From the IMG/VR virus record IMGVR_UViG_3300046000_006880: a stretch of 64,000 bases of DNA. The stretch is one strand, 5' to 3'. The notes under the pieces were generated by a model that saw nothing but the letters and a program-made list of their open reading frames with translations, was not told where the DNA came from and did no database searches. Made by a program: the position numbers and the translations under genes. This stretch comes from an uncultured virus (IMG/VR IMGVR_UViG_3300046000_006880). Lineage: Duplodnaviria; Heunggongvirae; Uroviricota; Caudoviricetes. Positions 1-62,127 of the stretch are shown here, one piece after another (position 1 is the stretch's first letter; each line of letters opens with the position of its first letter).

Positions 1-180
1 GCTGAGAAGGTCCTTAGAGAACACAAACCAAAGATCTGGCTATCTGGACACCCTGAGTTTATGTTACAGCAATGGGATGAATCTTTATATAATCTTAGAC
101 AGTGGATCAAGGGATTAGGATATACTGAAATAATTTTAGACTACCAGCATGAGGTGCATCTTTATTATGAATCATGCTAA
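1..180 (+). CDS. C-terminal fragment of a probable FkbM-family methyltransferase (runs off the window start)
   Basis: Frame 1 is open from base 1 (AEKVLREHKPKIWLSGHPEF...LGYTEIILDYQHEVHLYYESC) to TAA at 178-180. Resembles FkbM C-termini and precedes a methyltransferase/glycosyltransferase cluster. Not in the ORF track. Confidence 0.55.
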   Translation, partial: AEKVLREHKPKIWLSGHPEFMLQQWDESLYNLRQWIKGLGYTEIILDYQHEVHLYYESC

Positions 181-715
181 AACTTTTTGGGATAACGCTG
201 CTAAAGATCCAGATGTAAGGTATAAATATATTGCAGATGAGTGGGCAACTACTGAAACATTTTTGGATCTTATAAAAAATAATAATGACGAATGGGACAA
301 TGTTTTAGAAATTGGTTGCGGAATAGGCAGACTGCTAGTTCCTTTTGCAGATATGCACAAAGACTGTAACTTCTATGGGATAGACATATCTGATGAAATG
401 ATAAACCTTGCACCTAAAAGAGATAACATAAAGTATCAAGAACTTGCAGACAACCTTGACCTTGTATACTCAATGCTAGTGTTTCAGCATATTGAACATC
501 AAGAAAAAATTAATTATATAAAACTTGCTTATGAAAAATTAAAATTTGGTGGTAATTTATTCTTTCAGTTTGTTGTTGGCGAAGAGAATTCACCATACTC
601 CTATCAAACATCAAGGTTTGAAGTTGAAAGAATATTAAGTGATGCAGGATTTAAAAACTTAATATTTACAAATCATATGCATCCTGAATGGATGTTTGTT
701 AGGGCTACAAAATGA
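167..715 (+). CDS. Class I SAM-dependent methyltransferase
   Basis: Motif I VLEIGCGIGRL and motif II YGIDIS, plus DLVYSMLVFQH. Start moved to ATG 167, downstream of GAGGTG at 151-156. Confidence 0.9.
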   Translation: MNHAKTFWDNAAKDPDVRYKYIADEWATTETFLDLIKNNNDEWDNVLEIGCGIGRLLVPFADMHKDCNFYGIDISDEMINLAPKRDNIKYQELADNLDLVYSMLVFQHIEHQEKINYIKLAYEKLKFGGNLFFQFVVGEENSPYSYQTSRFEVERILSDAGFKNLIFTNHMHPEWMFVRATK

Positions 716-1560
716 CTAATGCATATATATATTCTATTGATCCACTTGATGCTGCAGATGGCAAGTGGGATTATGGACTACTTAAAGAAACATTTGAAAG
801 AAATAATGTTGATCAGGTAGTTGTAAAAGAAATACCAAAAGCAGATCGTGCGTTTGTTGTTATTCCTGGACATGGAAATGCTGGTAAAGAAAAAGAAATA
901 TCAAACCAATTAAAAAACCTAGATAGAGTTGTTTTGTTTATAACTGGTGATGAAAGCGCTCAATTTAATGTAGATAAAATTAGTCACTCTAATATTTCTA
1001 TTTGGGTTCAATATCCACATCAAAAACATGAACAATATAATAAATTTTTTATTGGTCCGCCTCAGCACTTAAAGTCTAACTTGCCTGATTATCCTGTTAA
1101 AGAATATGACATTTATTTTGGTGGACAAATAACCCATCAGCGTAGACAACAGTTAGCAGAGGTTATGCCAGACCTTCCCAATGCCCTCTATAAGCCTACA
1201 AAAGGCTTTGCACAGGGAGAACAGCCTAAAGAGTACTACCGCACCCTATCAAAGGCTAAAATCGCTCCTTGCCCTGCTGGGGCTATGGTTATAGATACCT
1301 TTAGGTTCTTTGAGGCAATTGAAATGCTTGCCCTACCTATTGGGGATCTTGTTGATTCAAATGGTAAAATGATTGATTATTTTAACTATGTCCATCCCGA
1401 AGAAATGCCAATAAGTAAAATTGATGACTGGACTAAACTAAAAATATTACTTCCTAAACTACTTAATGATTATCCAAACAATATGCACCAAGTCGTGTGT
1501 TGGTGGATCAAATACAAAAGAGATTTTTCTATTAAAATTATGAGGCATATTTATGAATAA
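712..1560 (+). CDS. Exostosin-like (GT47-type) glycosyltransferase
   Basis: C-terminal YDIYFGGQ..RR and YYRTLSKAKIAPCPAG...FRFFEAIEMLALPI match the exostosin/GT-B pattern. ATGA-coupled to the upstream gene. Confidence 0.7.
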   Translation: MTNAYIYSIDPLDAADGKWDYGLLKETFERNNVDQVVVKEIPKADRAFVVIPGHGNAGKEKEISNQLKNLDRVVLFITGDESAQFNVDKISHSNISIWVQYPHQKHEQYNKFFIGPPQHLKSNLPDYPVKEYDIYFGGQITHQRRQQLAEVMPDLPNALYKPTKGFAQGEQPKEYYRTLSKAKIAPCPAGAMVIDTFRFFEAIEMLALPIGDLVDSNGKMIDYFNYVHPEEMPISKIDDWTKLKILLPKLLNDYPNNMHQVVCWWIKYKRDFSIKIMRHIYE

Positions 1561-2284
1561 AAATGATATAACAATTGTGATACCTACATCGGTAATTCCA
1601 AGTCATCCAGACACCAGCGTGATAGGGGAAACAATTTCTACAGTAAGAACACATTTTCCCAACAATGAAATTATTTTACAGATAGATGGGTTACGTGAAG
1701 AGCGTTTATCTCGTAAAGCAGATTACGATGAATATAAAAATAGAGTTCTTTGGAAATGCATGCATGAATGGAAAAATGTTTTACCAATAATTTTTGATGA
1801 ACATTATCACCAAACCACAATGATGAAAAAAACAATTGATATTATTAACACTGCAGCAATGCTTTATGTTGAAGGAGATGCTCCCCTAACTACCGACTGT
1901 GAAATTGATTGGCAAAAATGTCTAGACATGCTTGAGTATAATAAGGCTAACACTATTCGTTTTCATTTTGAAGCATCTATTCCCCATGAGCATAATTATT
2001 TAATGTTTGGCCTTGAAGATGGCTTTATGAAAACTACACAGTGGAGTCAACGCCCTCATCTAAGTACCGTCAAATATTATCGTGAAGTTGTGCTTCCATT
2101 TTCTGAAGAAAAAACTTTTATTGAAGATAGGTTTCATGGTAAAGTTCAAGATGATAGTTGGGAAGACCATAAGCTTTGGATATACCATCCAGAAGGAAAT
2201 ATCAAGCGATCTTATCATTTAGATGGAAGGCAGGGAACACAAAAGTTTACAGTTGATGATGAAGCGTGGGGATATAAAGAATGA
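1553..2284 (+). CDS. GT-A fold (GT2-like) glycosyltransferase
   Basis: N-terminal ITIVIPTS...IILQIDG and an EGD acidic motif; sits within the glycosyltransferase operon. Confidence 0.7.
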   Translation: MNKNDITIVIPTSVIPSHPDTSVIGETISTVRTHFPNNEIILQIDGLREERLSRKADYDEYKNRVLWKCMHEWKNVLPIIFDEHYHQTTMMKKTIDIINTAAMLYVEGDAPLTTDCEIDWQKCLDMLEYNKANTIRFHFEASIPHEHNYLMFGLEDGFMKTTQWSQRPHLSTVKYYREVVLPFSEEKTFIEDRFHGKVQDDSWEDHKLWIYHPEGNIKRSYHLDGRQGTQKFTVDDEAWGYKE

Positions 2285-3327
2285 GATTAGGAATCATTGC
2301 AAGATCAGATAACACTGGTCTTGGCAATCAAACAAAAAATCTTGTAGATATGCTTGTCCCCAATAAAATACTTTTAATTGATTCAACCCCCTTCAATGAA
2401 AATAAACAGCACCCTGAATGGTATTCTGGATATAACTGCATAACAACAAAAAATGGTTTTGCAAGAAGAGAAGAGATAGTTCAGTTTCTTGATGGAATAG
2501 ATGTTGTATTAACTTGCGAATCTTTTTATAGCGAATTATTTTTAAGCCTTGCACAAAAAAGAAACATAAAAACTATTTTGCAATACAACTATGAGTTCTT
2601 AGACTTGGTTATAAATCCAGAGCAAAGAGTTCCAGATGTTTTAATCTCTCCAAGTGCATGGAAAATTGATCATGTCAAAGAGGTACTGGGAGATAGAACA
2701 CAAGTTATCCAGCTTCCACCACCTATTGACCCAATATTATTCTCAAGCCAAAGAGAAATTAATATGTCTAAAGATCACAAAAGAATCCTTCATATTGCTG
2801 GAAAGTTTGCTTCAAAAGATAGAAACGGTACAAGTACTGTAATTGACATGCTTCAGTATTCAAAAGAAGATTATGAATTGGTGATTAAGAGCCAAACCCC
2901 AATTGAAACAGAATGCCAAGATCCTAGACTAACTATTGATACATCTAGTCCTGATAACAGTGCAGACCTTTATAGTGGTTTTGATGCTATGGTTCTTCCA
3001 AGAAGATATGCTGGACTTTGTTTACCTATGAATGAGTCTCTTATGAGTGGATTGCCAGTGTTTATGACTGATATATCCCCGAATAATTCAGTTTTGCCTA
3101 GCGAATGGTTAGTTGAATCAGAAAAAATTGATAAACTTTTGACAAGAATGACTCTTGATGTTTATGGAGCTAATCCTAAACGACTTGCAAAAATGATTGA
3201 TAAGTATGTTAAATTAAAAAATAAAAAAGAGTCAAAGCAAAAAGCACTTGACATAGCATTAAACAGGTTTGACGTAAATAGACTTAGAGAGCAATACCTA
3301 AGTGTTATTAATAATGTAGTTAGATGA
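2281..3327 (+). CDS. GT4-family (GT-B) glycosyltransferase
   Basis: DNTGLG N-terminus; C-terminal DAMVLPRRYAGLCLPMNESLMSGLPVFMTD signature. Confidence 0.85.
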   Translation: MRLGIIARSDNTGLGNQTKNLVDMLVPNKILLIDSTPFNENKQHPEWYSGYNCITTKNGFARREEIVQFLDGIDVVLTCESFYSELFLSLAQKRNIKTILQYNYEFLDLVINPEQRVPDVLISPSAWKIDHVKEVLGDRTQVIQLPPPIDPILFSSQREINMSKDHKRILHIAGKFASKDRNGTSTVIDMLQYSKEDYELVIKSQTPIETECQDPRLTIDTSSPDNSADLYSGFDAMVLPRRYAGLCLPMNESLMSGLPVFMTDISPNNSVLPSEWLVESEKIDKLLTRMTLDVYGANPKRLAKMIDKYVKLKNKKESKQKALDIALNRFDVNRLREQYLSVINNVVR

Positions 3328-5155: not shown

Positions 5156-5454
5156 TAAATCTCTCCATTGCTTGTATAATTAAATAGATCTTCTAGTGAA
5201 GAAAACCCAACGTCTTCATTAATATCAAGAGACTTTAATAGAATGATCCAGGTTTCTTCTATATACTTTTTAGCAATCTCGGTTGGAGTCACCAACTCCG
5301 AGTCAACTAAAAATGCAAGAGGAAGACCTAAGTCATTGTAGGATATAAAGTCTTCAAACTGTTTTTCTTCTTTATGATTTATCCATAACTCAGCAAGAAT
5401 TGAGCAGTAATCATCAAAAGATGTTAGTTCATTTCCGTCGTCAGAGATTGCCAC
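5155..5454 (-). CDS. Hypothetical acidic protein
   Basis: Fills the operon gap; YNDLGLPLA motif; GTG start uncertain. Confidence 0.65.
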   Translation of the reverse strand: MAISDDGNELTSFDDYCSILAELWINHKEEKQFEDFISYNDLGLPLAFLVDSELVTPTEIAKKYIEETWIILLKSLDINEDVGFSSLEDLFNYTSNGEI

Positions 5455-5711
5455 ACATCACCCCACTGTTCTTTAGTCTTGTGCTTATTAAATTCTCGTG
5501 AAACTTCTCCACTCTCTAAGTATACACCACCCCATACGCCCCATTCTTTTCCAGAAACACCATTAGCAAAGCATGTTTTTGCAACTGGACATGAAGCACA
5601 AAAATTATCTATATTAGACCTTAATGCAATATCATCTTCATATTTTTCAAAATAAAGATTTGTTTCTAAGCCAAGGCATTTAGCTTGATCTTTCCATAAA
5701 TGTTGTTTCAA
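5424..5711 (-). CDS. whiB: WhiB-family Fe-S transcription regulator
   Basis: W..QAKC...C..CPV...C (four Cys) and the WGVWGG turn; TTG start after AAGGAG. Confidence 0.92.
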   Translation of the reverse strand: MKQHLWKDQAKCLGLETNLYFEKYEDDIALRSNIDNFCASCPVAKTCFANGVSGKEWGVWGGVYLESGEVSREFNKHKTKEQWGDVWQSLTTEMN

Positions 5712-8626: not shown

Positions 8627-8815
8627 CTACCGCTTTCTGTTGTCAGTTGAATAAAATCCAGGACCGTTTAGAACTACTCCAAAATTAGAATATACACGAA
8701 CCAGCGGTAGAGTGCAAGTTTCACACTCATACCCTGGATCGTTTTCTGTAATAGAACGAACCTTGATTACAGTTTCTTTGCAAGATCCTGTGCACTCGTA
8801 TTCGTATGCTGGCAT
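8627..8815 (-). CDS. FmdB-family zinc-ribbon protein
   Basis: MPAYEYEC..C, C..C and GPGFYSTD signature. Confidence 0.85.
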   Translation of the reverse strand: MPAYEYECTGSCKETVIKVRSITENDPGYECETCTLPLVRVYSNFGVVLNGPGFYSTDNRKR

Positions 8816-9603
8816 TACTTAGCCTTTAATGCCTTAAAAGTAATGGCATCTACAATACCATCAGCCTTAAGCTTGTTTGCTGATTGAAATGCTTTGACAG
8901 CTTTTTCTGTTCCTGGACCAAAATCTCCATCAGACTTAAGCCCAAGAAACTTTTGAACTTTCTTAACTGACTCACCCTTTGACCCATTCTTAAGTGGCTT
9001 AAATGCTGCTGCTTTCTTTGCAGCTGGCTTAGCAGCAGGCTTTGCAGGTTCTGAAACAGCACTACCCTTTGACAATAGTGGAGCATTTTCTTCTCCTACG
9101 TAAACTGGACGACCCCAACCAACAACTGCGTTAAGAATACCCTTCTTATTCTTTACATAAGCACGAGTTTTTTCTACACACATTCCGCCATTGCGCTGGT
9201 CTCCCTTTGCAGTTCCAGATGTGTTTCCTTCAATAACCTGAATTGTTCCGTCACCATTGTTCTTAATGCAAAGACCAACATGTGAAATACGATTTACACC
9301 ATCATCTGGGAAATCAAAATAAATCCAGTCTCCTGGAGTTGGATCATCATTACGAGCATCTGCCCAACGATTATTCTTCTTAAACCAATCTGCTGCTGCA
9401 ACTGTTGAAGCAGACTTTGGATACTTCTTTGGATCTAGTCCTGATGTGAATGCAGACCAAGATACAAATGATTGGCACCATGGCTGGAAGTTTGCACCAG
9501 TCCACTTACCATACTTTGTTTCATTATCTTTTGGACCTTCAATAGTTCCAACTTCTTTCTTTGCAACCTCAATGATTGCTTCTAGCGAGCCTTTAACAGC
9601 CAT
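8815..9603 (-). CDS. Endolysin: CHAP amidase/peptidase plus peptidoglycan-binding domain
   Basis: PWCQSFVSW (catalytic Cys), SHVG (His), IEGNT; C-terminal LKNGSKGESVKKVQ..DGDFGPGTEKAVKAFQ PG_binding_1 pattern. Confidence 0.92.
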   Translation of the reverse strand: MAVKGSLEAIIEVAKKEVGTIEGPKDNETKYGKWTGANFQPWCQSFVSWSAFTSGLDPKKYPKSASTVAAADWFKKNNRWADARNDDPTPGDWIYFDFPDDGVNRISHVGLCIKNNGDGTIQVIEGNTSGTAKGDQRNGGMCVEKTRAYVKNKKGILNAVVGWGRPVYVGEENAPLLSKGSAVSEPAKPAAKPAAKKAAAFKPLKNGSKGESVKKVQKFLGLKSDGDFGPGTEKAVKAFQSANKLKADGIVDAITFKALKAK

Positions 9604-9639
9604 ATATAACCTCCTAAAGTTAGTATTTCAATTATAGCA

Positions 9640-9915
9640 TCAAGCAGTCTTTGCTGTCAATCTGTTATAAGTTCTTATCCTATGACAGTTTGCACATACT
9701 ACTTCACATTTTAATATTTCTTTTTTTATTGCTGCCCAGGAAAATCCATCGTGGATCATTCTGGAAATATTATATTTTTTATCTCTTAGGTGATCAAAAT
9801 CTAAAACTATGTGATTGGATTCTCCGCAGTCAGAACACCCGCTAGCCTCTTTAATTTCTTTAAGACGCCTTTTGAATTGCTGTTTGTTATAAACTGCCAA
9901 TTCTTTTTCTGACAT
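9640..9915 (-). CDS. HNH-like endonuclease
   Basis: CSDCG, LDFDH and CEVVCANCHRIRT motifs. Start taken as MSEKEL. Confidence 0.8.
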   Translation of the reverse strand: MSEKELAVYNKQQFKRRLKEIKEASGCSDCGESNHIVLDFDHLRDKKYNISRMIHDGFSWAAIKKEILKCEVVCANCHRIRTYNRLTAKTA

Positions 9916-9942
9916 GGTTTTATAATTATACACCTAAATGTA

Positions 9943-10028
9943 AAGCCCCACACAGGTATTCCAGGCACAATAGCCACGGTCAAACAAATGGGTAACTAAG
10001 CCATCTCTAAGGTCCTGTGTGGGGACTT
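9943..10028 (-). ncRNA. Candidate structured small RNA of unknown family
   Basis: Perfect 11 bp terminal stem (CCCCACACAGG 9946-9956 / CCTGTGTGGGG 10014-10024) enclosing two short internal hairpins. TACAAT -10 box at 10034-10039 on the minus strand. Confidence 0.5.
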
Positions 10029-10039
10029 CTTATATTGTA

Positions 10040-10456
10040 CTACTTGATTTTAATTGTTTTTGGCTTCTTTTCTTCAGGAACAATACGGTCAACATTAATG
10101 TTTAACATACCATCCTTTAGTTCTGCACCAGTTACTTCCATGTACTCGCCAAGGGCAAATGATCGTATAAATTTACGACCAGCAATACCCTTGTGAACTA
10201 CTTCAGCATCTTCTACCTCGGTAATTTCACCCTTAATAATCAAGGTTCCATTGTCTACTGACACATCAATGTCATCTTTTGTAAATCCTGCAATTGCAAG
10301 AGACAGCCTATATGTATCTTCATCTAGTTTGATAAGATCATATGGAGGATATGACTGTAGATTTGTTTTGTGTGCGGTACTTAAACGACCTAGCTCCCTA
10401 TTGAAGCCAATAAAAAAAGGATCATTGAAAAGATCCATTGCGAATTGATTTACCAT
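10040..10456 (-). CDS. hsp20: Small heat-shock protein Hsp20 (IbpA-like)
   Basis: YPPYDLIK, LAIAGF, HKGIAGRKFIRSF and AELKDGML..VPEEKKPKTIKI motifs. Confidence 0.95.
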   Translation of the reverse strand: MVNQFAMDLFNDPFFIGFNRELGRLSTAHKTNLQSYPPYDLIKLDEDTYRLSLAIAGFTKDDIDVSVDNGTLIIKGEITEVEDAEVVHKGIAGRKFIRSFALGEYMEVTGAELKDGMLNINVDRIVPEEKKPKTIKIK

Positions 10457-10457
10457 T

Positions 10458-10506
10458 TTATTCCCCTTTCAAGCGAATAAGTTAGTGTACCCCCGTAGGC
10501 AGTACA
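10458..10506 (-). promoter_or_regulatory. ROSE-like RNA thermometer in the hsp20 5' UTR
   Basis: UUAUUCGCUU-GAAA-GGGGAAUAA hairpin pairs the SD with UCGCU and a bulged G; an upstream hairpin is capped by C(UACG)G. Confidence 0.6.
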
Positions 10507-10526
10507 ATCCTATTATACCAAATATT

Positions 10527-10600
10527 TGGAGCGGATAGCGGGAATCAAACCCGCACATTAACCTTGGCAAGGTTACGCACTATCACTATGCAATATCCGC
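10527..10600 (-). tRNA. tRNA-Gly(GCC) with encoded CCA
   Basis: Cloverleaf: acceptor GCGGATA/TATCCGC, D stem GCAT/GTGC, anticodon arm TAACC-TTGCCAA-GGTTA, T arm GCGGG-TTTGATT-CCCGC, discriminator T, CCA. Confidence 0.92.
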
Positions 10601-10604
10601 ATTG

Positions 10605-10677
10605 CTGGCCCACCAGGTCTCGATCCTGGGACATTCGAATTAACAGTTCGACGCTCTACCAACTGAGCTATGGGCCA
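10605..10677 (-). tRNA. tRNA-Asn(GTT), CCA not encoded
   Basis: Acceptor TGGCCCA/TGGGCCA, D arm GCTC-AGTTGGTA-GAGC, anticodon arm TCGAA-CTGTTAA-TTCGA, T arm CCAGG-ATCGAGA-CCTGG, discriminator G. Confidence 0.9.
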
Positions 10678-46991: not shown

Positions 46992-47013
46992 GCATCACCT
47001 CTTTTAAGTTTTA

Positions 47014-47334
47014 TTATTCAAATGCAAGAGTGTTTGCTACAGATCCAAGTTCAATTCCTGATGCTGCTTCAACAATCTTATAGACCGTAGGAAGATCAAG
47101 AATTTCTTCAAGTGCTTCCAAGTCTTTTGCCAATTCTGGCTTGTACTGCTGCATAGCAATTTGAACACACTCAACAAGAAGAGTCATTGACTTTTCATTG
47201 TTATCCGCCACCGCTGCTACTCCTTCAAACTTCTTCATGAACGGGCGAAGCAAAGAAATTTTAAGAGGTCTAACCTCAATCTTTGTCCCATCAATGAGAG
47301 TAAGTTCGTTCCCCTCGTGTACTTTTGTTGCCAT
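47014..47334 (-). CDS. Tail assembly chaperone, short (G-like) form
   Basis: Between tail tube and tape measure; strong AGGAGG SD; homologous to the N-half of 47362-48066. Confidence 0.8.
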   Translation of the reverse strand: MATKVHEGNELTLIDGTKIEVRPLKISLLRPFMKKFEGVAAVADNNEKSMTLLVECVQIAMQQYKPELAKDLEALEEILDLPTVYKIVEAASGIELGSVANTLAFE

Positions 47335-47361
47335 TCGTTCCTCCTATGTAGGCTTAGTCAA

Positions 47362-48066
47362 TTATAGCATAACGGAGGGGTCTCTAGCGTCTTCATAATC
47401 AAGACCCATGTTAATTCCAAAACCTGCAGATGATGCTTTAGGTCCTTGAAAAGATAGAATATCATTTGAATCATTTGTTTGACCTTGGCTAAATACTCTA
47501 GCCTTCATGTCTTCCCATTGCTTTTGTCCTTTATCTTGTTCTCCTTCAAGGTCAACTCCTTGAATGGCTGCCAAGAATTTCTTTTCCTCATAATCTAATT
47601 CTCTTTTGCTTTCTATGGTTGCCAGTAGTTCGGGCATAGAAAGAGATATTTCTAGTTCACGATAGTCTTTCCATATGCCCAATAAAAAAACTTCGGACTC
47701 TAATTTAGCAAGATCAAATGTATCCCAAGTTACTCCATTTTCTACTGCTTGATCTTTTACTGCTTCTTCTGATTTATTGTTTATTTTTATACCGCCTGCA
47801 ATATCTAAAACCTCATATATGTTTGGAAGGTCAAGGTTGTCCTCAAGGTCTTCAGTACTTCTAGATATAGAAGGATAATATTGTTTCATGGCTATTCTTG
47901 CACATTCTGCTAATAAGCCAATTGCTTCATCATCATTTTTAGCAGTACGAACTAACTGAAAAGCATCCATAAACTCACGAAGGTATTTTATCTTTAAAGG
48001 CATTGCCTCAATTTCTCTACCATCAATGAGTTTAATTATTTTGTTATTATATATTTTTGTAGCCAT
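47362..48066 (-). CDS. Tail assembly chaperone, long (GT-like) form
   Basis: N-half aligns with the short chaperone; C-half (FDLAKLESEVFLLGIWKDYRELE..MPEL) is T-like. Start taken as MATKIY. Confidence 0.75.
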   Translation of the reverse strand: MATKIYNNKIIKLIDGREIEAMPLKIKYLREFMDAFQLVRTAKNDDEAIGLLAECARIAMKQYYPSISRSTEDLEDNLDLPNIYEVLDIAGGIKINNKSEEAVKDQAVENGVTWDTFDLAKLESEVFLLGIWKDYRELEISLSMPELLATIESKRELDYEEKKFLAAIQGVDLEGEQDKGQKQWEDMKARVFSQGQTNDSNDILSFQGPKASSAGFGINMGLDYEDARDPSVML

Positions 48067-48092
48067 AGAATTCAATTTTATCATATAGAAAC

Positions 48093-48120
48093 AACAAAAC
48101 CCACTATTTTCATAGTGGGC
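48093..48120 (-). terminator. Intrinsic terminator after the major tail gene
   Basis: Minus strand CCCACTAT-GAAA-ATAGTGGG followed by TTTTGTTG. Confidence 0.8.
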
Positions 48121-48143
48121 TAAGTCGTATAATTTATGTTAAA

Positions 48144-56748: not shown

Positions 56749-58782
56749 TTAGTACAACTTGATTTCACAAGCATCTGTAGAACAATATTTCTCAGACTCA
56801 GCATCAAGGTTATCTTTACCATCATAAATAGCAGACCAGTCAATTTTGCCAATTGTTCCTACATATGCATTATATTGTTCTCTTGTAATCTCCGTATATG
56901 GTTGCTGTGGATAGGTTTTATTCCCCATTGGAAGGAATGAAACAGCCTTTAGCTGGCCCTCATACATATTAAGGGCTGGAGCAATAAATTTTGTTTCTTC
57001 TTCTTTGTCAAATGAAAGTGTCACAGAGACACCATTATCTGACCAGTACTTCTGAGCAGTTGCTGCCAAACCAATTTTCTCAAACAAACTAACCTGCTTT
57101 TCTGCACGTTTGTGTCCAGATGCAACTGGGAAATATACTACCTGTGTATTTGCTGATACAAGGTCTGGTTCAACTTTATACCCCGCTGCTTTGAATAGGT
57201 GAAGCATTGGATCTTGGTCTCCAAAGCGAATAGCTCTAAGATAGAACTCTCCACCAGGACCCCAGTGAACTCCAGGGGTAGCACCAGAGAGAAGTGAAAC
57301 AGATCCTGATGGCTTAACTGTAGTTACACGAACTGACTCACGAACACACAACCATTCTGAATATGAATGATCATATTTACGGATTGTATTATATCCTTCA
57401 TCCATCCATTCACGAATAACAGGAAGACCATATTCATCAGCAAAAGAAGCAATGCCTGTAAGAGATGTGCCAATACGACGATTGCGTTGCATAATACCAT
57501 TTGTCTGTTGCCAATGTGTAGGCATTAAAGTTACAGTTTTTCCATAAAGATAAGCAAACTTTAATGTCTTTAAAAAGTCTTCTTTAGATTCATGGCGATT
57601 AAGATGAACTTCAACCAATGTACATAGTTCATAACTTTCTAGTGGCTGTTCAGCACAAGGATTAAAACCCATGATTCTAGAATCTTTATAGTCTGGTGCA
57701 TCTGCAAGACGACCATAACTACGTGCAACATCTAACCAAATAAAACCTGGTTCTCCATTATCTGCAATTAAATCTACATAGTCTTCATACTTTGTTCCAA
57801 CTTCAGCAGCAATAGAGTTATTACTCATCCATGCCCACCCTGGTTTCTTTGGATCATATGAATTTCTTTCTGCAAATACCTCGGGATTTTTAAGATTAAT
57901 AAAATCTTGATCTTCTGGTGTACCAAGTGCAAGGGTAGCAGAACGACGAACATTTCCAGAAACAACACATGTACCAATAAGATTTACAATATCTACAATA
58001 GCACGGCTATCAAAGGCATCCCCTGCTCTAGAACCGATTACATTACGAATACGTGTATGGAGATCAATAAGTGGTGCTGGACCGCTTGCTACCCCGCCAA
58101 AGCCCTTAATAGGGGCACCTAGAGGACGAATGAGGTCATAGGTAAACTCTTGAATAGACTGGTTTGCACGAAGGAATGAATTAATAAGTAATCTAACAGA
58201 CTCAACCCATCCTTCACGAGTATCTGGGATTTCATAAATAGATGCTGGCTCTGTTGGAGCATAGATAGACATTTGCTTGTCTTGACCAAGGGTATCAAAC
58301 CCTACACCAATACCTAACATTAATGCATCCATTACCCAAGCAAAAAGAGCACCTGGATCATTACGATCAATGTCACGAGTAGAGACCATTGCACAATTTT
58401 GAAGGGATGCTGAGTTACGCTTCTCCATAGTCATAGGAGTTCCAAATGCCCAGAGACCACGGCCTGGAGGAGTCCACTTTAATTCAAACATTCTTTGAAA
58501 GGCTTCTTGGGCAGACTTCTGTGCCTTGTTATCATTCCAAGGTAGGCGATTATCTTTAGCATGGTTTTTTTGAACTGAATACATACCCTCAATTACACGA
58601 CGACATACTTCATGCCAGCGTTCTTTTGTCCCGTCTTCTTTAACACGAGAATATGTACGAATAAATGTTACCTCTCCCAGAGAGTTAGATCCTGCATCTG
58701 AGAATCCAAATGGCGCTGGGATGGTTTGATATTTATTTACAAATTCTTCTGATAGACGAAAAGAGAATACGCTTTCTGACAT
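56749..58782 (-). CDS. nrdJ: Class II (B12-dependent) ribonucleotide reductase, monomeric RTPR type
   Basis: RTYSR, PPGRGLW, LQNC, GNVRRSA, NPCAEQ, TVKPSGSVS and C-terminal CSTDAC redox pair. Confidence 0.95.
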   Translation of the reverse strand: MSESVFSFRLSEEFVNKYQTIPAPFGFSDAGSNSLGEVTFIRTYSRVKEDGTKERWHEVCRRVIEGMYSVQKNHAKDNRLPWNDNKAQKSAQEAFQRMFELKWTPPGRGLWAFGTPMTMEKRNSASLQNCAMVSTRDIDRNDPGALFAWVMDALMLGIGVGFDTLGQDKQMSIYAPTEPASIYEIPDTREGWVESVRLLINSFLRANQSIQEFTYDLIRPLGAPIKGFGGVASGPAPLIDLHTRIRNVIGSRAGDAFDSRAIVDIVNLIGTCVVSGNVRRSATLALGTPEDQDFINLKNPEVFAERNSYDPKKPGWAWMSNNSIAAEVGTKYEDYVDLIADNGEPGFIWLDVARSYGRLADAPDYKDSRIMGFNPCAEQPLESYELCTLVEVHLNRHESKEDFLKTLKFAYLYGKTVTLMPTHWQQTNGIMQRNRRIGTSLTGIASFADEYGLPVIREWMDEGYNTIRKYDHSYSEWLCVRESVRVTTVKPSGSVSLLSGATPGVHWGPGGEFYLRAIRFGDQDPMLHLFKAAGYKVEPDLVSANTQVVYFPVASGHKRAEKQVSLFEKIGLAATAQKYWSDNGVSVTLSFDKEEETKFIAPALNMYEGQLKAVSFLPMGNKTYPQQPYTEITREQYNAYVGTIGKIDWSAIYDGKDNLDAESEKYCSTDACEIKLY

Positions 58783-58940: not shown

Positions 58941-59507
58941 TTATACATAACGAATTGCGCGAACTGGGAAAGCACCAGTTCCTTTATCAGAGTAGTCCTG
59001 AGTGCCATCTACCATACTTTGTATATGAGCATCTGACGTAAATTGCTCACTAGATGCCCAATAATAGGTTTGAGCAGCGGTTCCGCTTGTTGGAAAACCA
59101 CCGACAACTGTTTTTTGTAAGTAAAGTTGAGCAAGTTCTAATCTTGAAGGTAAGAACCAATCCGTTTTACCGCCACCAGTATAGGAGCGGCATCTAGTTG
59201 CGGCTTTATTGGCGGTACTGTTCTGCGCCACTATCGCAATTGAGTTGGTCAATCCTGCACCGATAGCGGTGGAAGTGCCTACAAGAGTATTTCCATTTCC
59301 AGACCAATTGAGTTGTTGTGTAAGATTAAATGCTGGGGAAGTAGAAGAATTTGCTGCTTCCATATATCTTCCCCAGGATAAAGTGCTTCCAGCATCATAG
59401 AATATTTTACCTCCGCCAGGACCAGTATCGCCTATAGAATAAACAATAGGGGCAGATAAAGATCCTGCACCTGAAAAAGATCCGACTCCGCTGAACGTAT
59501 TTGGCAT
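58941..59507 (-). CDS. DUF1566/Lcl-like (C-type-lectin fold) protein, paralogue B
   Basis: IGDTGPGGGKIFY, DWFLPSRLEL, YYWASSE and VRAIR. Confidence 0.75.
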   Translation of the reverse strand: MPNTFSGVGSFSGAGSLSAPIVYSIGDTGPGGGKIFYDAGSTLSWGRYMEAANSSTSPAFNLTQQLNWSGNGNTLVGTSTAIGAGLTNSIAIVAQNSTANKAATRCRSYTGGGKTDWFLPSRLELAQLYLQKTVVGGFPTSGTAAQTYYWASSEQFTSDAHIQSMVDGTQDYSDKGTGAFPVRAIRYV

Positions 59508-59508
59508 A

Positions 59509-59814
59509 TTATTCTACTAGTTCTTGCCAATTAAGATCTTCTTCTACCCACATATACATTTTACCATCTGTTGGATATGAAGTAGGTGGTTCATATGATG
59601 CAGTTTCTAAATTTAATGTCCAAGATGGGAATTGCTGAACTCCATAGCACTCTAAGGTTTGTCTTGCAATTAATTCTGATTCCGCCCAAATCCATCCTTC
59701 AACGGGATAAGAGTAGGTATCCTTTTGATCTATCCATAATTCAAAGTTATCATTGATAACTCTATCGGCTGACCAAATTAGAAAGCCGTTGTCATTTTTA
59801 TAAAATCCTTGCAT
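59509..59814 (-). CDS. Hypothetical protein (fibre assembly-like)
   Basis: YSYPVEGW and FPSWTL...YPTDGKMY.W.E motifs common in tail-associated small proteins. Confidence 0.65.
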   Translation of the reverse strand: MQGFYKNDNGFLIWSADRVINDNFELWIDQKDTYSYPVEGWIWAESELIARQTLECYGVQQFPSWTLNLETASYEPPTSYPTDGKMYMWVEEDLNWQELVE

Positions 59815-59826
59815 TATATTTCTCCC

Positions 59827-60372
59827 TTATTCTACGTAACGAATTGGTCTAATATACCAGGTTCCACTTTTTGCAGTAGAAGCTTCGCCGCTGCTATAGC
59901 GACCATAAGCATTTGTTGCACTGCTCTCAGTTGAGGACCAATAGTATGCATTACCAGCCACTGGTGAATACGAAGCCCTATTAGCAATAAATGGAGTTAA
60001 TTCATCTCTTGATGGTAAGAACCAATCAGTAAATCCATTAACCTCATATGCGTCACAATATGTTCCTGCTTTACTTGCTGTATTGTTTTGTGCAACTATG
60101 GCTAAAGTATTTGTATATCCTGTGCCAATTGCTGAAGATGTTCCAACTAAAGTATTAGTGTTACCTGACCATGTTCCTGTTGTATCACTAAAATTTGAAG
60201 CACCAGCAGGAGCTGGAGCACATTCTAAATACTGACCCCAAGATAGTGTGCTTCCAGCGTCATAAAAAATCTTTCCTCCTGCAGGACCAGTTTGACCAAT
60301 AGTATAAACTGCTTTATTTTTTAAACTACCGACACCTGAGAAAGATCCTTGACCACTATAAGTACTTGGCAT
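59827..60372 (-). CDS. DUF1566/Lcl-like (C-type-lectin fold) protein, paralogue A
   Basis: IGQTGPAGGKIFY, DWFLPSRDEL, YYWSSTE and IRPIR. Confidence 0.75.
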   Translation of the reverse strand: MPSTYSGQGSFSGVGSLKNKAVYTIGQTGPAGGKIFYDAGSTLSWGQYLECAPAPAGASNFSDTTGTWSGNTNTLVGTSSAIGTGYTNTLAIVAQNNTASKAGTYCDAYEVNGFTDWFLPSRDELTPFIANRASYSPVAGNAYYWSSTESSATNAYGRYSSGEASTAKSGTWYIRPIRYVE

Positions 60373-60378
60373 GTTGCA

Positions 60379-62127
60379 TTACCAGGCACTCATTATATTC
60401 ATAAGAGAAATATCTTGTTCATATCCACTTGCATCAAGTGATGCATGTATTGGTGATGTAATTTTTGTTGCAGATGCTACTCCAAGTGTAGGAGCAGTCA
60501 TTGTTGGGCTAGTTAAAGTTTTATTTGTAAGAGTCTGTGTATTTCCAGCAGTTGTAATTATATTATCTGCAGACAAAGTTCCAACATATGCGTTACTGCC
60601 TCCAGCTGGAACAATTCTAACGTTTGTGTCTCCACTTACTAAGAAATCACCAGTTCCGCTAATTGTGGATGTTCCTGAAAGTGTTGCACCTGATAATGTT
60701 AGTCCCGCAATTGTTGTGACGGTAGCTCCTGAAGCAATTGATGTTGATCCAAGTGTTGGTGCTGAATATCCTGATACTGTACCCCAAGAAGTTGAAGTTC
60801 CATCTGTAGTAAGGTACTTACCTGAGTTGCTAGTTTGTGAAGCAACTAAATCAGTTCCGTTATATTTTAATGTCTTACCTGAAGCAAGATTAATATGCTC
60901 TGATGAAGTCCAAGCATCTGTAGCGTCTACCCAGTTAAAAGTTTTATCAGTTGCCCCCTTGAGTGTGAGGCCACCACCGTCGGCAGTTGTATCAGTTGGG
61001 GTATCAACATCACCAAGGATAATATTCTTATCATCCACTGCAAGAGTAGTAGAGTTAATTGTTGTGGTTGTGCCATTAATTGTTAGGTCCCCTGAAAGTG
61101 TAAGGGATGTACCAGTTGCAGCACCAATGTTTGGTGTTACAAGTGTTGGGGTATCAGCAAAAACAAGTGTTCCACTACCATTGTGATCAGAGATTACTGA
61201 TTGAAGTTCTGATGAAGAAGTTGCTGCAAAAGCATCCAACTTATTGTTTGTAAGAGCAACAGTACCTGTAGCATCTGGGAAAGTTACTGTACGGTCACCA
61301 GTTGGATCTGCAACTGTAAGTGTTGTCTCAAATTCATTTGCTGTTGTACCTTCAAGAACGATTGAACCATCTGAAAGCGTAAGTCCTGAAACTACTGGAC
61401 TTGTCAAAGTTTTGTTTGTTAAAGTTTCTGTTTTGCTTTCAGTTGATTTGGCATCTAATTGAGTTTGTATTGCTGAAGTAACACCATTAAGGTATCCGAT
61501 TTCTGTATCTGTAACATCTGTAACACGAGCCTGAATTGTTGTAGTATCTACATCAAATTTACTTGTTCCAGCATTCCAGCTAATTCCATTACCTGCAAGT
61601 GTAGACTGATCTACTTCTGCTCCACCAATTTCTGAATCTACATATTCTTGTGTTGCTACTGTTCCTGTTTCATCAGGAAATGTTATAGTACGATCTGCTG
61701 TGGGTTCTCCTGCTGAAAGGGTAAGTTCGTGAGCATCTGCTGTTGAACCTTCCATTACGATTGTTGAAGTAAATATACCAATGTCTGTAATGTCTGAAAG
61801 GTTTCCTGTTGTAATAACAGTTCCTGTAACATTTGGAATAGTAATTGTACGATCTGCTGTAGGATCTGTTATTTGAAGTGTTGTTTCAAATCCATCTGCC
61901 GTTGCACCCTCAAATGTAATACTTGAGCCAAAGGCAGGGTTTACTGTTGAATTAGCATCAATAAAGTAATCAAGGGTTAGCCAGTGATTTGTGCCATCAC
62001 CAATTTTAAACTTGTTTGTATCGGTCTCATATCCAATTTCGCCAGGTTCAAGAATGGGGCCATTTCCTGAATTTGTTGAAATCCATTGAGCCGCAGTACC
62101 TCTGCGCTGTTGCATTCTTGTTGCCAT
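60379..62127 (-). CDS. Virion fibre protein with Mtd-N/hyaluronidase-like N-terminal domain
   Basis: RMQQRRGTAAQW...PILEPGEIGYETDTNKFKIGDG; three EG.TA...E.TL....PT.DRT.T.P repeats; LTNKTLTSP motifs. Confidence 0.75.
   Translation of the reverse strand: MATRMQQRRGTAAQWISTNSGNGPILEPGEIGYETDTNKFKIGDGTNHWLTLDYFIDANSTVNPAFGSSITFEGATADGFETTLQITDPTADRTITIPNVTGTVITTGNLSDITDIGIFTSTIVMEGSTADAHELTLSAGEPTADRTITFPDETGTVATQEYVDSEIGGAEVDQSTLAGNGISWNAGTSKFDVDTTTIQARVTDVTDTEIGYLNGVTSAIQTQLDAKSTESKTETLTNKTLTSPVVSGLTLSDGSIVLEGTTANEFETTLTVADPTGDRTVTFPDATGTVALTNNKLDAFAATSSSELQSVISDHNGSGTLVFADTPTLVTPNIGAATGTSLTLSGDLTINGTTTTINSTTLAVDDKNIILGDVDTPTDTTADGGGLTLKGATDKTFNWVDATDAWTSSEHINLASGKTLKYNGTDLVASQTSNSGKYLTTDGTSTSWGTVSGYSAPTLGSTSIASGATVTTIAGLTLSGATLSGTSTISGTGDFLVSGDTNVRIVPAGGSNAYVGTLSADNIITTAGNTQTLTNKTLTSPTMTAPTLGVASATKITSPIHASLDASGYEQDISLMNIMSAW

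Follow-up and report, generated by a model that had tools for sequence, protein, structure and literature searches.

A probable two-gene tail assembly chaperone locus without a G/T frameshift in a clade of uncultured siphoviruses

Two neighbouring genes of an uncultured virus (IMG/VR record IMGVR_UViG_3300046000_006880, of which a stretch of 64,000 nucleotides was analysed, hereafter the window) probably encode the tail assembly chaperones GT (the long gene) and G (the short gene) of a lake siphovirus of actinobacteria, with a ratio that would be set by transcription and initiation and not by recoding. We consider the clade to which this phage belongs a clean and independent case of a two-gene solution; the principle itself has already been reported for T4-like phages.

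Few recoding events in tailed phages are as widely conserved as the G/T frameshift. Tail formation requires both G and GT, and a study by Xu from 2013 is said to have found that lambda needs the G:GT ratio and not the shift itself. The locus described here stands between tube and tape measure genes like that of lambda gpG/gpGT, also encodes a short and a long form that share their N-terminal domain, and has relatives that use the shift sites C CCA AAY and G GGA AAH. In contrast to lambda, the window phage does without the frameshift: there are two genes with the long one first, their shared domain is 43% identical, and each has its own putative promoter. As described in PMC5009743, lambda makes G and GT at 30:1, G binding the tape measure protein and T the tube protein, and the -1 frameshift is conserved in long-tailed phages. 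A clade without the frameshift beside sisters that have it displays the individual steps (fusion, duplication, rewiring of the start signals and asymmetric divergence), and the cultured Streptomyces relatives allow a direct swap test.

The organization of the locus is given in Table 1. The pair is flanked by the major tail and tape measure genes, as is usual for G/GT chaperones, and the coordinates confirm the order that had been proposed from the sequence (long gene, then short gene). The two -10 boxes named in that original prediction are both present where it had placed them; the same is true for the lack of a Shine-Dalgarno (SD) sequence before the long gene, the distance of 8 nt from its -10 box and the AGGAGG before the short gene. 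An in-frame ATG six codons upstream of the MATK start of the long gene overlaps the -10 box, and homologues do not start there. Not mentioned earlier is the terminator-like hairpin 5' of the long gene; upstream of this gene a GC stem half and a U tract are present across the loci L001-L080.

Table 1. Features of the chaperone locus and host marker gene, in window positions.
Feature	Position	Strand	Evidence
whiB gene	5424-5711	-	PF02467, 7e-11
Tape measure protein gene, 1698 aa	41895..46991	-	phrog_10030 5.4e-104; PF10145
SD-like GAGGTG of tape measure gene	46996..47001	-	sequence
Short gene, G-like chaperone, 106 aa	47014..47334	-	phrog_10504 3.4e-19
SD AGGAGG of short gene, 5 nt 5' of ATG	47340..47345	-	sequence
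Extended -10 box of short gene, TGCTATAAT, overlapping the last codons and stop of the long gene	47361..47369	-	pattern and conservation
Long gene, in-frame G-T fusion (GT-like), 234 aa from MATK	47362..48066	-	phrog_10504 on residues 1-109, phrog_10474 on 131-191
T domain of long gene, residues 113-234	47365..47730	-	aligns with -1 frame ORF of frameshifting relatives, ~40-63% identity
G domain of long gene, residues 1-100	47767..48066	-	43% identical to short protein
Extended -10 box of long gene, TGATAAAAT, 8 nt 5' of ATG, leaderless-type start	48075..48083	-	pattern and conservation
Intrinsic-terminator-like hairpin and U tract between major tail gene and long gene	48088..48121 (hairpin 48121-48098)	-	10-pair stem; fold -21.2 kcal/mol
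Major tail (tube) protein gene, 213 aa	48144..48785	-	phrog_2175 2.9e-32; phrog_885 major tail protein 0.0039; same place annotated major tail protein in Streptomyces phages

The window comes from the genome of a long-tailed phage, with genes for the portal, prohead protease, capsid and head-tail proteins, the major tail protein, the chaperone pair, the tape measure protein and the tail tip; no sheath gene was seen in it. The presence of whiB, described as a marker of an actinobacterial host (PMC6802176), points to such a host. The locus is covered by contigs from lake RNA libraries at ~96% identity (883 nt with 30 differences and 916 nt with 34, no gaps), which places close relatives of the phage in lake water and is not evidence of transcription. 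Read depth in the RNA runs (much higher for the major tail gene, low for both chaperone genes) was rejected as a measure of level, since the four runs used, of five found, consist of contigs, whose depth cannot rank genes. Several other regions of the window drew our attention. A B12-dependent (class II type) ribonucleotide reductase is encoded just upstream of the portal region (56749-58782, minus strand), preceded by two Lcl C-terminal-like proteins and a protein with an Mtd N-terminal domain (58941-62127, minus strand). An endolysin with CHAP and peptidoglycan-binding domains, Hsp20, tRNA-Gly and tRNA-Asn are found at 8815-10677 (minus strand), and a block with a methyltransferase gene and glycosyltransferase-like genes at 149-3327 lies on the plus strand, the rest of the window being on the other strand.

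The long (234 aa) and short (106 aa) genes are paralogues, as had been suggested: the short protein aligns to the N-terminal half of the long one with 42 of 98 residues identical (43%, E 2e-28 in BLASTP). In PHROGs, phrog_10504 is matched by the short protein and by the N-terminal part of the long protein, phrog_10474 only by the C-terminal part of the latter. A role as chaperones is suggested by position and homology, with weak support from the predicted fold. The short protein was modelled twice with AlphaFold (pLDDT 59.5 and 69.9), and YqbN (3KLU) was the best match of both models (Z 6.0, rmsd 3.9 and Z 5.1, rmsd 4.5, each over 85 aligned residues), while 3FGX (Z 4.6) and HK97 2OB9 (Z 4.3) were matched by the first, poorer model only. 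What is shared with these solved structures (YqbN 3KLU, Rbstp2171 3FGX and HK97 gp13 2OB9) is a beta hairpin plus helices over 82-87 residues; at Z 4.3-6.0, rmsd 3.9-4.5 and 12% identity the likeness is too low to be decisive alone, the Z scores being near those of unrelated helical proteins (within 1 Z for the second model). The three proteins are described as tail chaperones in PMC9603447, which reports Z 4.4-4.5 for another member. The top match in BFVD (34% identity, E 5.6e-7) carries the name tail assembly chaperone. Foldseek against the PDB returned no match at E 0.001 or better, no solved structure matched in a sequence profile search below E 0.2, and Pfam gave no chaperone family for either window protein; among 100 family members the Pfam chaperone models were touched by 4 (E ~1e-3) and the PHROG chaperone families by a few. 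Overall, the modelled fold is weakly consistent with the solved chaperones.

For the T domain together with the major tail protein we obtained a predicted binding score of 0.48 (best control 0.00); in calibration, 116 of 157 solved pairs and 2 of 215 mismatched pairs attained the mark, and scores of at most 0.60 were seen in 18 of the 157 and in both of these mismatches. Contacts agreed between runs for at least 73%, with a partner pLDDT of at least 47. This prediction lends weak support to binding of the major tail protein by the T domain, in line with the lambda model.

Cultured relatives show the other organization. With tblastn 132 phage records were found (127 Streptomyces, 5 Rhodococcus), all below 60% identity; in a sample of 40 rows from top to bottom of the ranking, the match falls into two pieces in 39 and is confined to T in one, and none of the cultured phages among the listed matches carries the G-T fusion. 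The closest cultured homologues of both domains, with the same gene order, are Stanwilliamsviridae (Streptomyces phages such as TunaTartare, Emma1919, Coruscant and Circinus) and the Rhodococcus phages Francesca and Trina. Unlike the window phage, all eight cultured records that were opened have a single G ORF and then, immediately 5' of the tape measure gene, a -1 frame T ORF, with no second G. Their G is preceded by a -10 box and an SD sequence, as is the short gene of the window. The C-terminal half of the long protein, for which a comparison with the T region of relatives had been proposed, indeed aligns with this -1 ORF, and three of the eight GenBank records (TunaTartare, Emma1919 and Francesca) annotate a joined G-T chaperone there; the other five list separate G and T genes. 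For annotation, phrog_10504 can be read as G and phrog_10474 as T, and many records with separate entries for the two genes probably shift at C CCA AAY.

Of the 94 frameshift-type loci, 92 carry an in-frame X XXY YYZ heptamer in the G/T overlap (C CCA AAC in 56 loci, C CCA AAT in 26, G GGA AAC in 8 and G GGA AAA in 2); among control windows of equal size elsewhere in G, 19 of 488 contain one. The two loci without a canonical heptamer, Coruscant and Genie2, both have C CCG GAA at that place. By these sequence criteria the frameshift in the relatives is real. In both exceptions (L081 2790-2845 and L082 2800-2863) the -1 T frame opens at this non-canonical site, where relatives have C CCA AAT.

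To compare the two organizations we used 191 loci: 8 cultured records and 183 uncultured loci from four scans (80 nearest to the long protein, 11 nearest to a Streptomyces G, 80 of the 559 nearest to a Streptomyces-type T, and 12 from genome assemblies). These were chosen by similarity, are related and include near-copies, so that the counts are not independent events and give no frequency of either type. G followed by a -1 T is seen in 94 loci, with a second G in none of them (90 have at least 450 nt of downstream sequence and 84 at least 1000 nt). Another 96 are fused as a single ORF, with a G further downstream in 92; one locus gave no match. The four fused loci lacking it are cut off by contig ends, three of them 0-122 nt past the gene and one inside an inserted gene. 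The fused frame and the second copy of G go together, and the two layouts are mutually exclusive. The proposal that this phage had hard-wired GT as a fusion and duplicated G is supported as to the fusion and the duplication, but these are not traits of this phage in particular: the two-gene layout belongs to the whole clade.

For the phylogenetic analyses, 123 of 131 distinct rows with the major tail gene were kept, and 90% dereplication reduced these to 86 (31 fused, 55 frameshift-type). The tree of major tail plus T (86 rows, rooted on two Rhodococcus phages) has one state change (SH-aLRT 92), and the fused group is nested inside uncultured frameshifters. The tree of the major tail gene only (72 rows) has two state changes, on weakly supported branches, and in the T-only tree (26 rows) the frameshifter L128 joins the fused L139 at 96/89. 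A single clean origin of the fused layout is not supported by the tree of every gene. The T of L128 (at 1501-1866) groups with that of L139 and its G with that of the frameshifter L124, for which recombination, long-branch error or reversal could account.

In the G tree, built on 98 rows after removal of 16 of the frameshift type (14 near-copies and the two Rhodococcus rows), all long-G domains fall in one clade (100/99) and all short-G in another (100/95), a pattern that speaks for a single event of duplication or capture. Short-G adjoins the G of the sister frameshifters (57% identity, stem 0.14), whereas long-G is farther from it (41% identity, stem 0.53). The two G copies of the original prediction are thus present; however, judged by sequence and start signals, the conservative heir of the ancestral G is the short gene and not the long form.

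It might be argued that the G domain of the long gene is a xenologue, recombined in from another phage lineage, with functions as in the explanation that we prefer. The free trees indeed put long-G outside a group of short-G and eight sister frameshifters (89/87; 93/90). Nonetheless we regard such a capture as unlikely, given that the sisterhood of long-G and short-G is not rejected (AU test, p 0.213, 35 rows), that the long stem of long-G can draw the branch outward, and that in their T domains the fused genes cluster with these same sister frameshifters (97/95). According to the history that we favour, G would have been duplicated once and T fixed in frame on one of the copies.

The start signals of the two genes differ consistently. 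Among 31 dereplicated fused loci, every long gene has a -10 box, at a distance to the ATG of 6 (10 loci), 7 (1), 8 (5) or 9 nt (15); the box is a perfect TATAAT in 4 of 31 and a strong SD is found in none. The short genes have a perfect TATAAT in 29 of 29 (24-38 nt 5' of the ATG) and strong anti-SD pairing in 27 of 29. For G of the frameshifters, a -10 box at 22-43 nt and a strong SD are each seen in 45 of 53. Since the latter resembles the short gene in having box and SD, the short gene keeps the ancestral architecture, and the leaderless start would be the new feature. TGnTAnnnT boxes precede many genes in the window, so it is not the box alone that is special but the conserved contrast between the two genes. 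The promoters were called from the extended -10 pattern together with conservation; a sigma-70 scan requiring a -35 box missed both of them (17 sites, against 23.2 in shuffled sequences). Other genes of the head module also have candidate starts of the leaderless type, with extended -10 boxes 7 and 10 nt before the ATG and no SD at 56712-56704 (the gene before portal) and 54651-54643 (prohead protease), both on the minus strand.

No TGnTAnnnT box was found within 80 nt of the tape measure start in any of the 28 fused loci in which this start was located, which suggests a common transcript for G and the tape measure protein. Such a box is seen before the tape measure gene in 4 of 53 frameshift-type loci (L121, L128, L163 and L187, among the nearest sisters), where the starts were located only roughly. 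In the mechanism that we propose, the hairpin would mostly stop transcription coming from the major tail gene, and a near-leaderless mRNA, driven by a -10 box that is usually imperfect, would yield little GT. G would be produced in large amounts from a consensus promoter and a strong SD, on one transcript with the tape measure protein that it coats, while the T domain of GT would recruit the tail tube protein as in lambda. Transcription and initiation would together set the G:GT ratio, replacing recoding.

More tentatively, and with a chance that we put somewhat below even, one siphovirus clade may have lost the G/T frameshift once and restored the dosage through transcription signals: GT would have become a weak, leaderless, terminator-insulated unit, and the new copy of G would have taken over the promoter that the nearest frameshifting sisters have in front of the tape measure gene, so that one mRNA yields G shortly before its client. 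If true, this would be a natural experiment on whether the frameshift preserves only the ratio, and not a shared sequence or coupling; the fast divergence of long-G, once its sequence was no longer shared with G, would then reveal the constraint imposed by the frameshift.

With the major tail gene as reference, codon adaptation reaches 0.60 in short G, 0.49 in long-G and 0.50 in T, with short G above long-G in 29 of 29 loci. Across 43 uncultured frameshifters the values are 0.59 for G against 0.48 for T (G higher in 41 of 43). These figures suggest that both derived genes fall into the level classes of the ancestral parts whose place they took, and the proxies (promoter, SD and codon bias) favour a higher output of the short gene. 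Leaderless mRNAs form an ordinary class of transcripts in actinobacteria (PMC6614810; in S. clavuligerus they account for 433 of the 1869 primary starts, and 92.8% of them have a 0-nt leader), so the lack of an SD is by itself no proof of low output. In 20 of the 31 long genes 8-9 nt separate the -10 box from the ATG, so that the start site is putative.

The paralogues could also divide the work differently, the long protein being a specialised initiator with its own timing or with a level near that of G, and the high lambda-like G:GT ratio being lost. Separate promoters permit separate timing, leaderless starts can be efficient and are common in actinobacteria, and the divergence of long-G (in stem length as well as in identity to the G of the sisters) would fit a specialised role. 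We nevertheless think this quite improbable: the weaker -10 box (perfect in 4 of 31 versus 29 of 29), the missing SD and the lower codon adaptation all point to low output of the long gene, and long-G is still under purifying selection. The latter holds for both genes, with dN/dS values of 0.10 for long-G, 0.08 for T and 0.19 for short G (0.19 for the major tail gene; pooled over 8 pairs).

The window locus is not frameshifted in the manner of lambda: T is in frame, and in the linker of the fused genes (codon 91 to the start of T) a heptamer of any kind is present in 2 of 31, none of them conserved. For a G-only product made from the long gene by a shift into a stop (dnaX-like), with the short gene as an accessory copy, one could point to the in-frame A/T-rich heptamers scattered in long genes; however, with canonical sites scored, this linker count and the presence of the short gene in 92 of 96 fused against 0 of 94 frameshift-type loci make it very improbable. 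That an assembly or sequencing artefact put T in frame, as might be suspected from the uncultured source of the window and the lack of cultured counterparts among the listed matches, is already refuted by the same frame in 96 loci (identity down to ~65% and below), by its presence in 80 of the 80 closest IMG/VR loci (so that it is not an assembly slip), by the best 120 of 6189 protein-database matches (128-410 aa), which cover 97-100% of the long protein, and by the lake contigs that cross the locus without gaps.

Some T4-like phages are described in PMC10274946 as having one short and one fused long chaperone gene and no frameshift, which is credited there to Vladimirov et al. 2022. Vladimirov, Gautam and Davidson (Virology 2022) are cited in PMC12846349 for slippery sites in T4-like TAC-N genes, and Vladimirov et al. 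2022 also in PMC12859696 and PMC11526630. Going by the definition in PMC10274946, the window phage resembles these phages in its separate short gene, its fused long gene and the lack of a frameshift. It differs in being of a siphovirus lineage related to Stanwilliamsviridae with extant frameshifting sisters, and is set apart from the T4-like case, as the citing papers describe it, by the adjacency of the genes, the long-then-short order and the conserved contrast between leaderless and SD-led starts. None of the tblastn matches (127 Streptomyces, 5 Rhodococcus) is a T4-like record; together with the nesting of the clade among frameshifters, this points to an independent origin, and on these sequence comparisons the two-gene layout of the window clade most likely arose separately from the T4-like one. 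A literature search, with subscription journals mostly outside its reach, found no paper on the chaperone locus of this clade.

Some minor variants of the locus were observed. Four database proteins have odd forms (P0183, P0125, P0126 and P0167), namely a G-T fusion of 164 aa that is shortened internally and long forms whose C-terminal ends are unrelated or cut, possibly due to misassembly. The short gene of L025 (3753-4063) appears to be broken by a frame change near codon 24, which could be a sequence error. Long and short genes need not adjoin, as inserted genes lie between them in five loci: a SAM methyltransferase according to Pfam in L018 (3697-4472) and a gene similar to it by eye in L060 (3697-4477), an endonuclease VII-type nuclease in L066 (3718-4343) and L189 (1255-1881), and in L075 (3746-4223) a gene with its own -10 box and SD.
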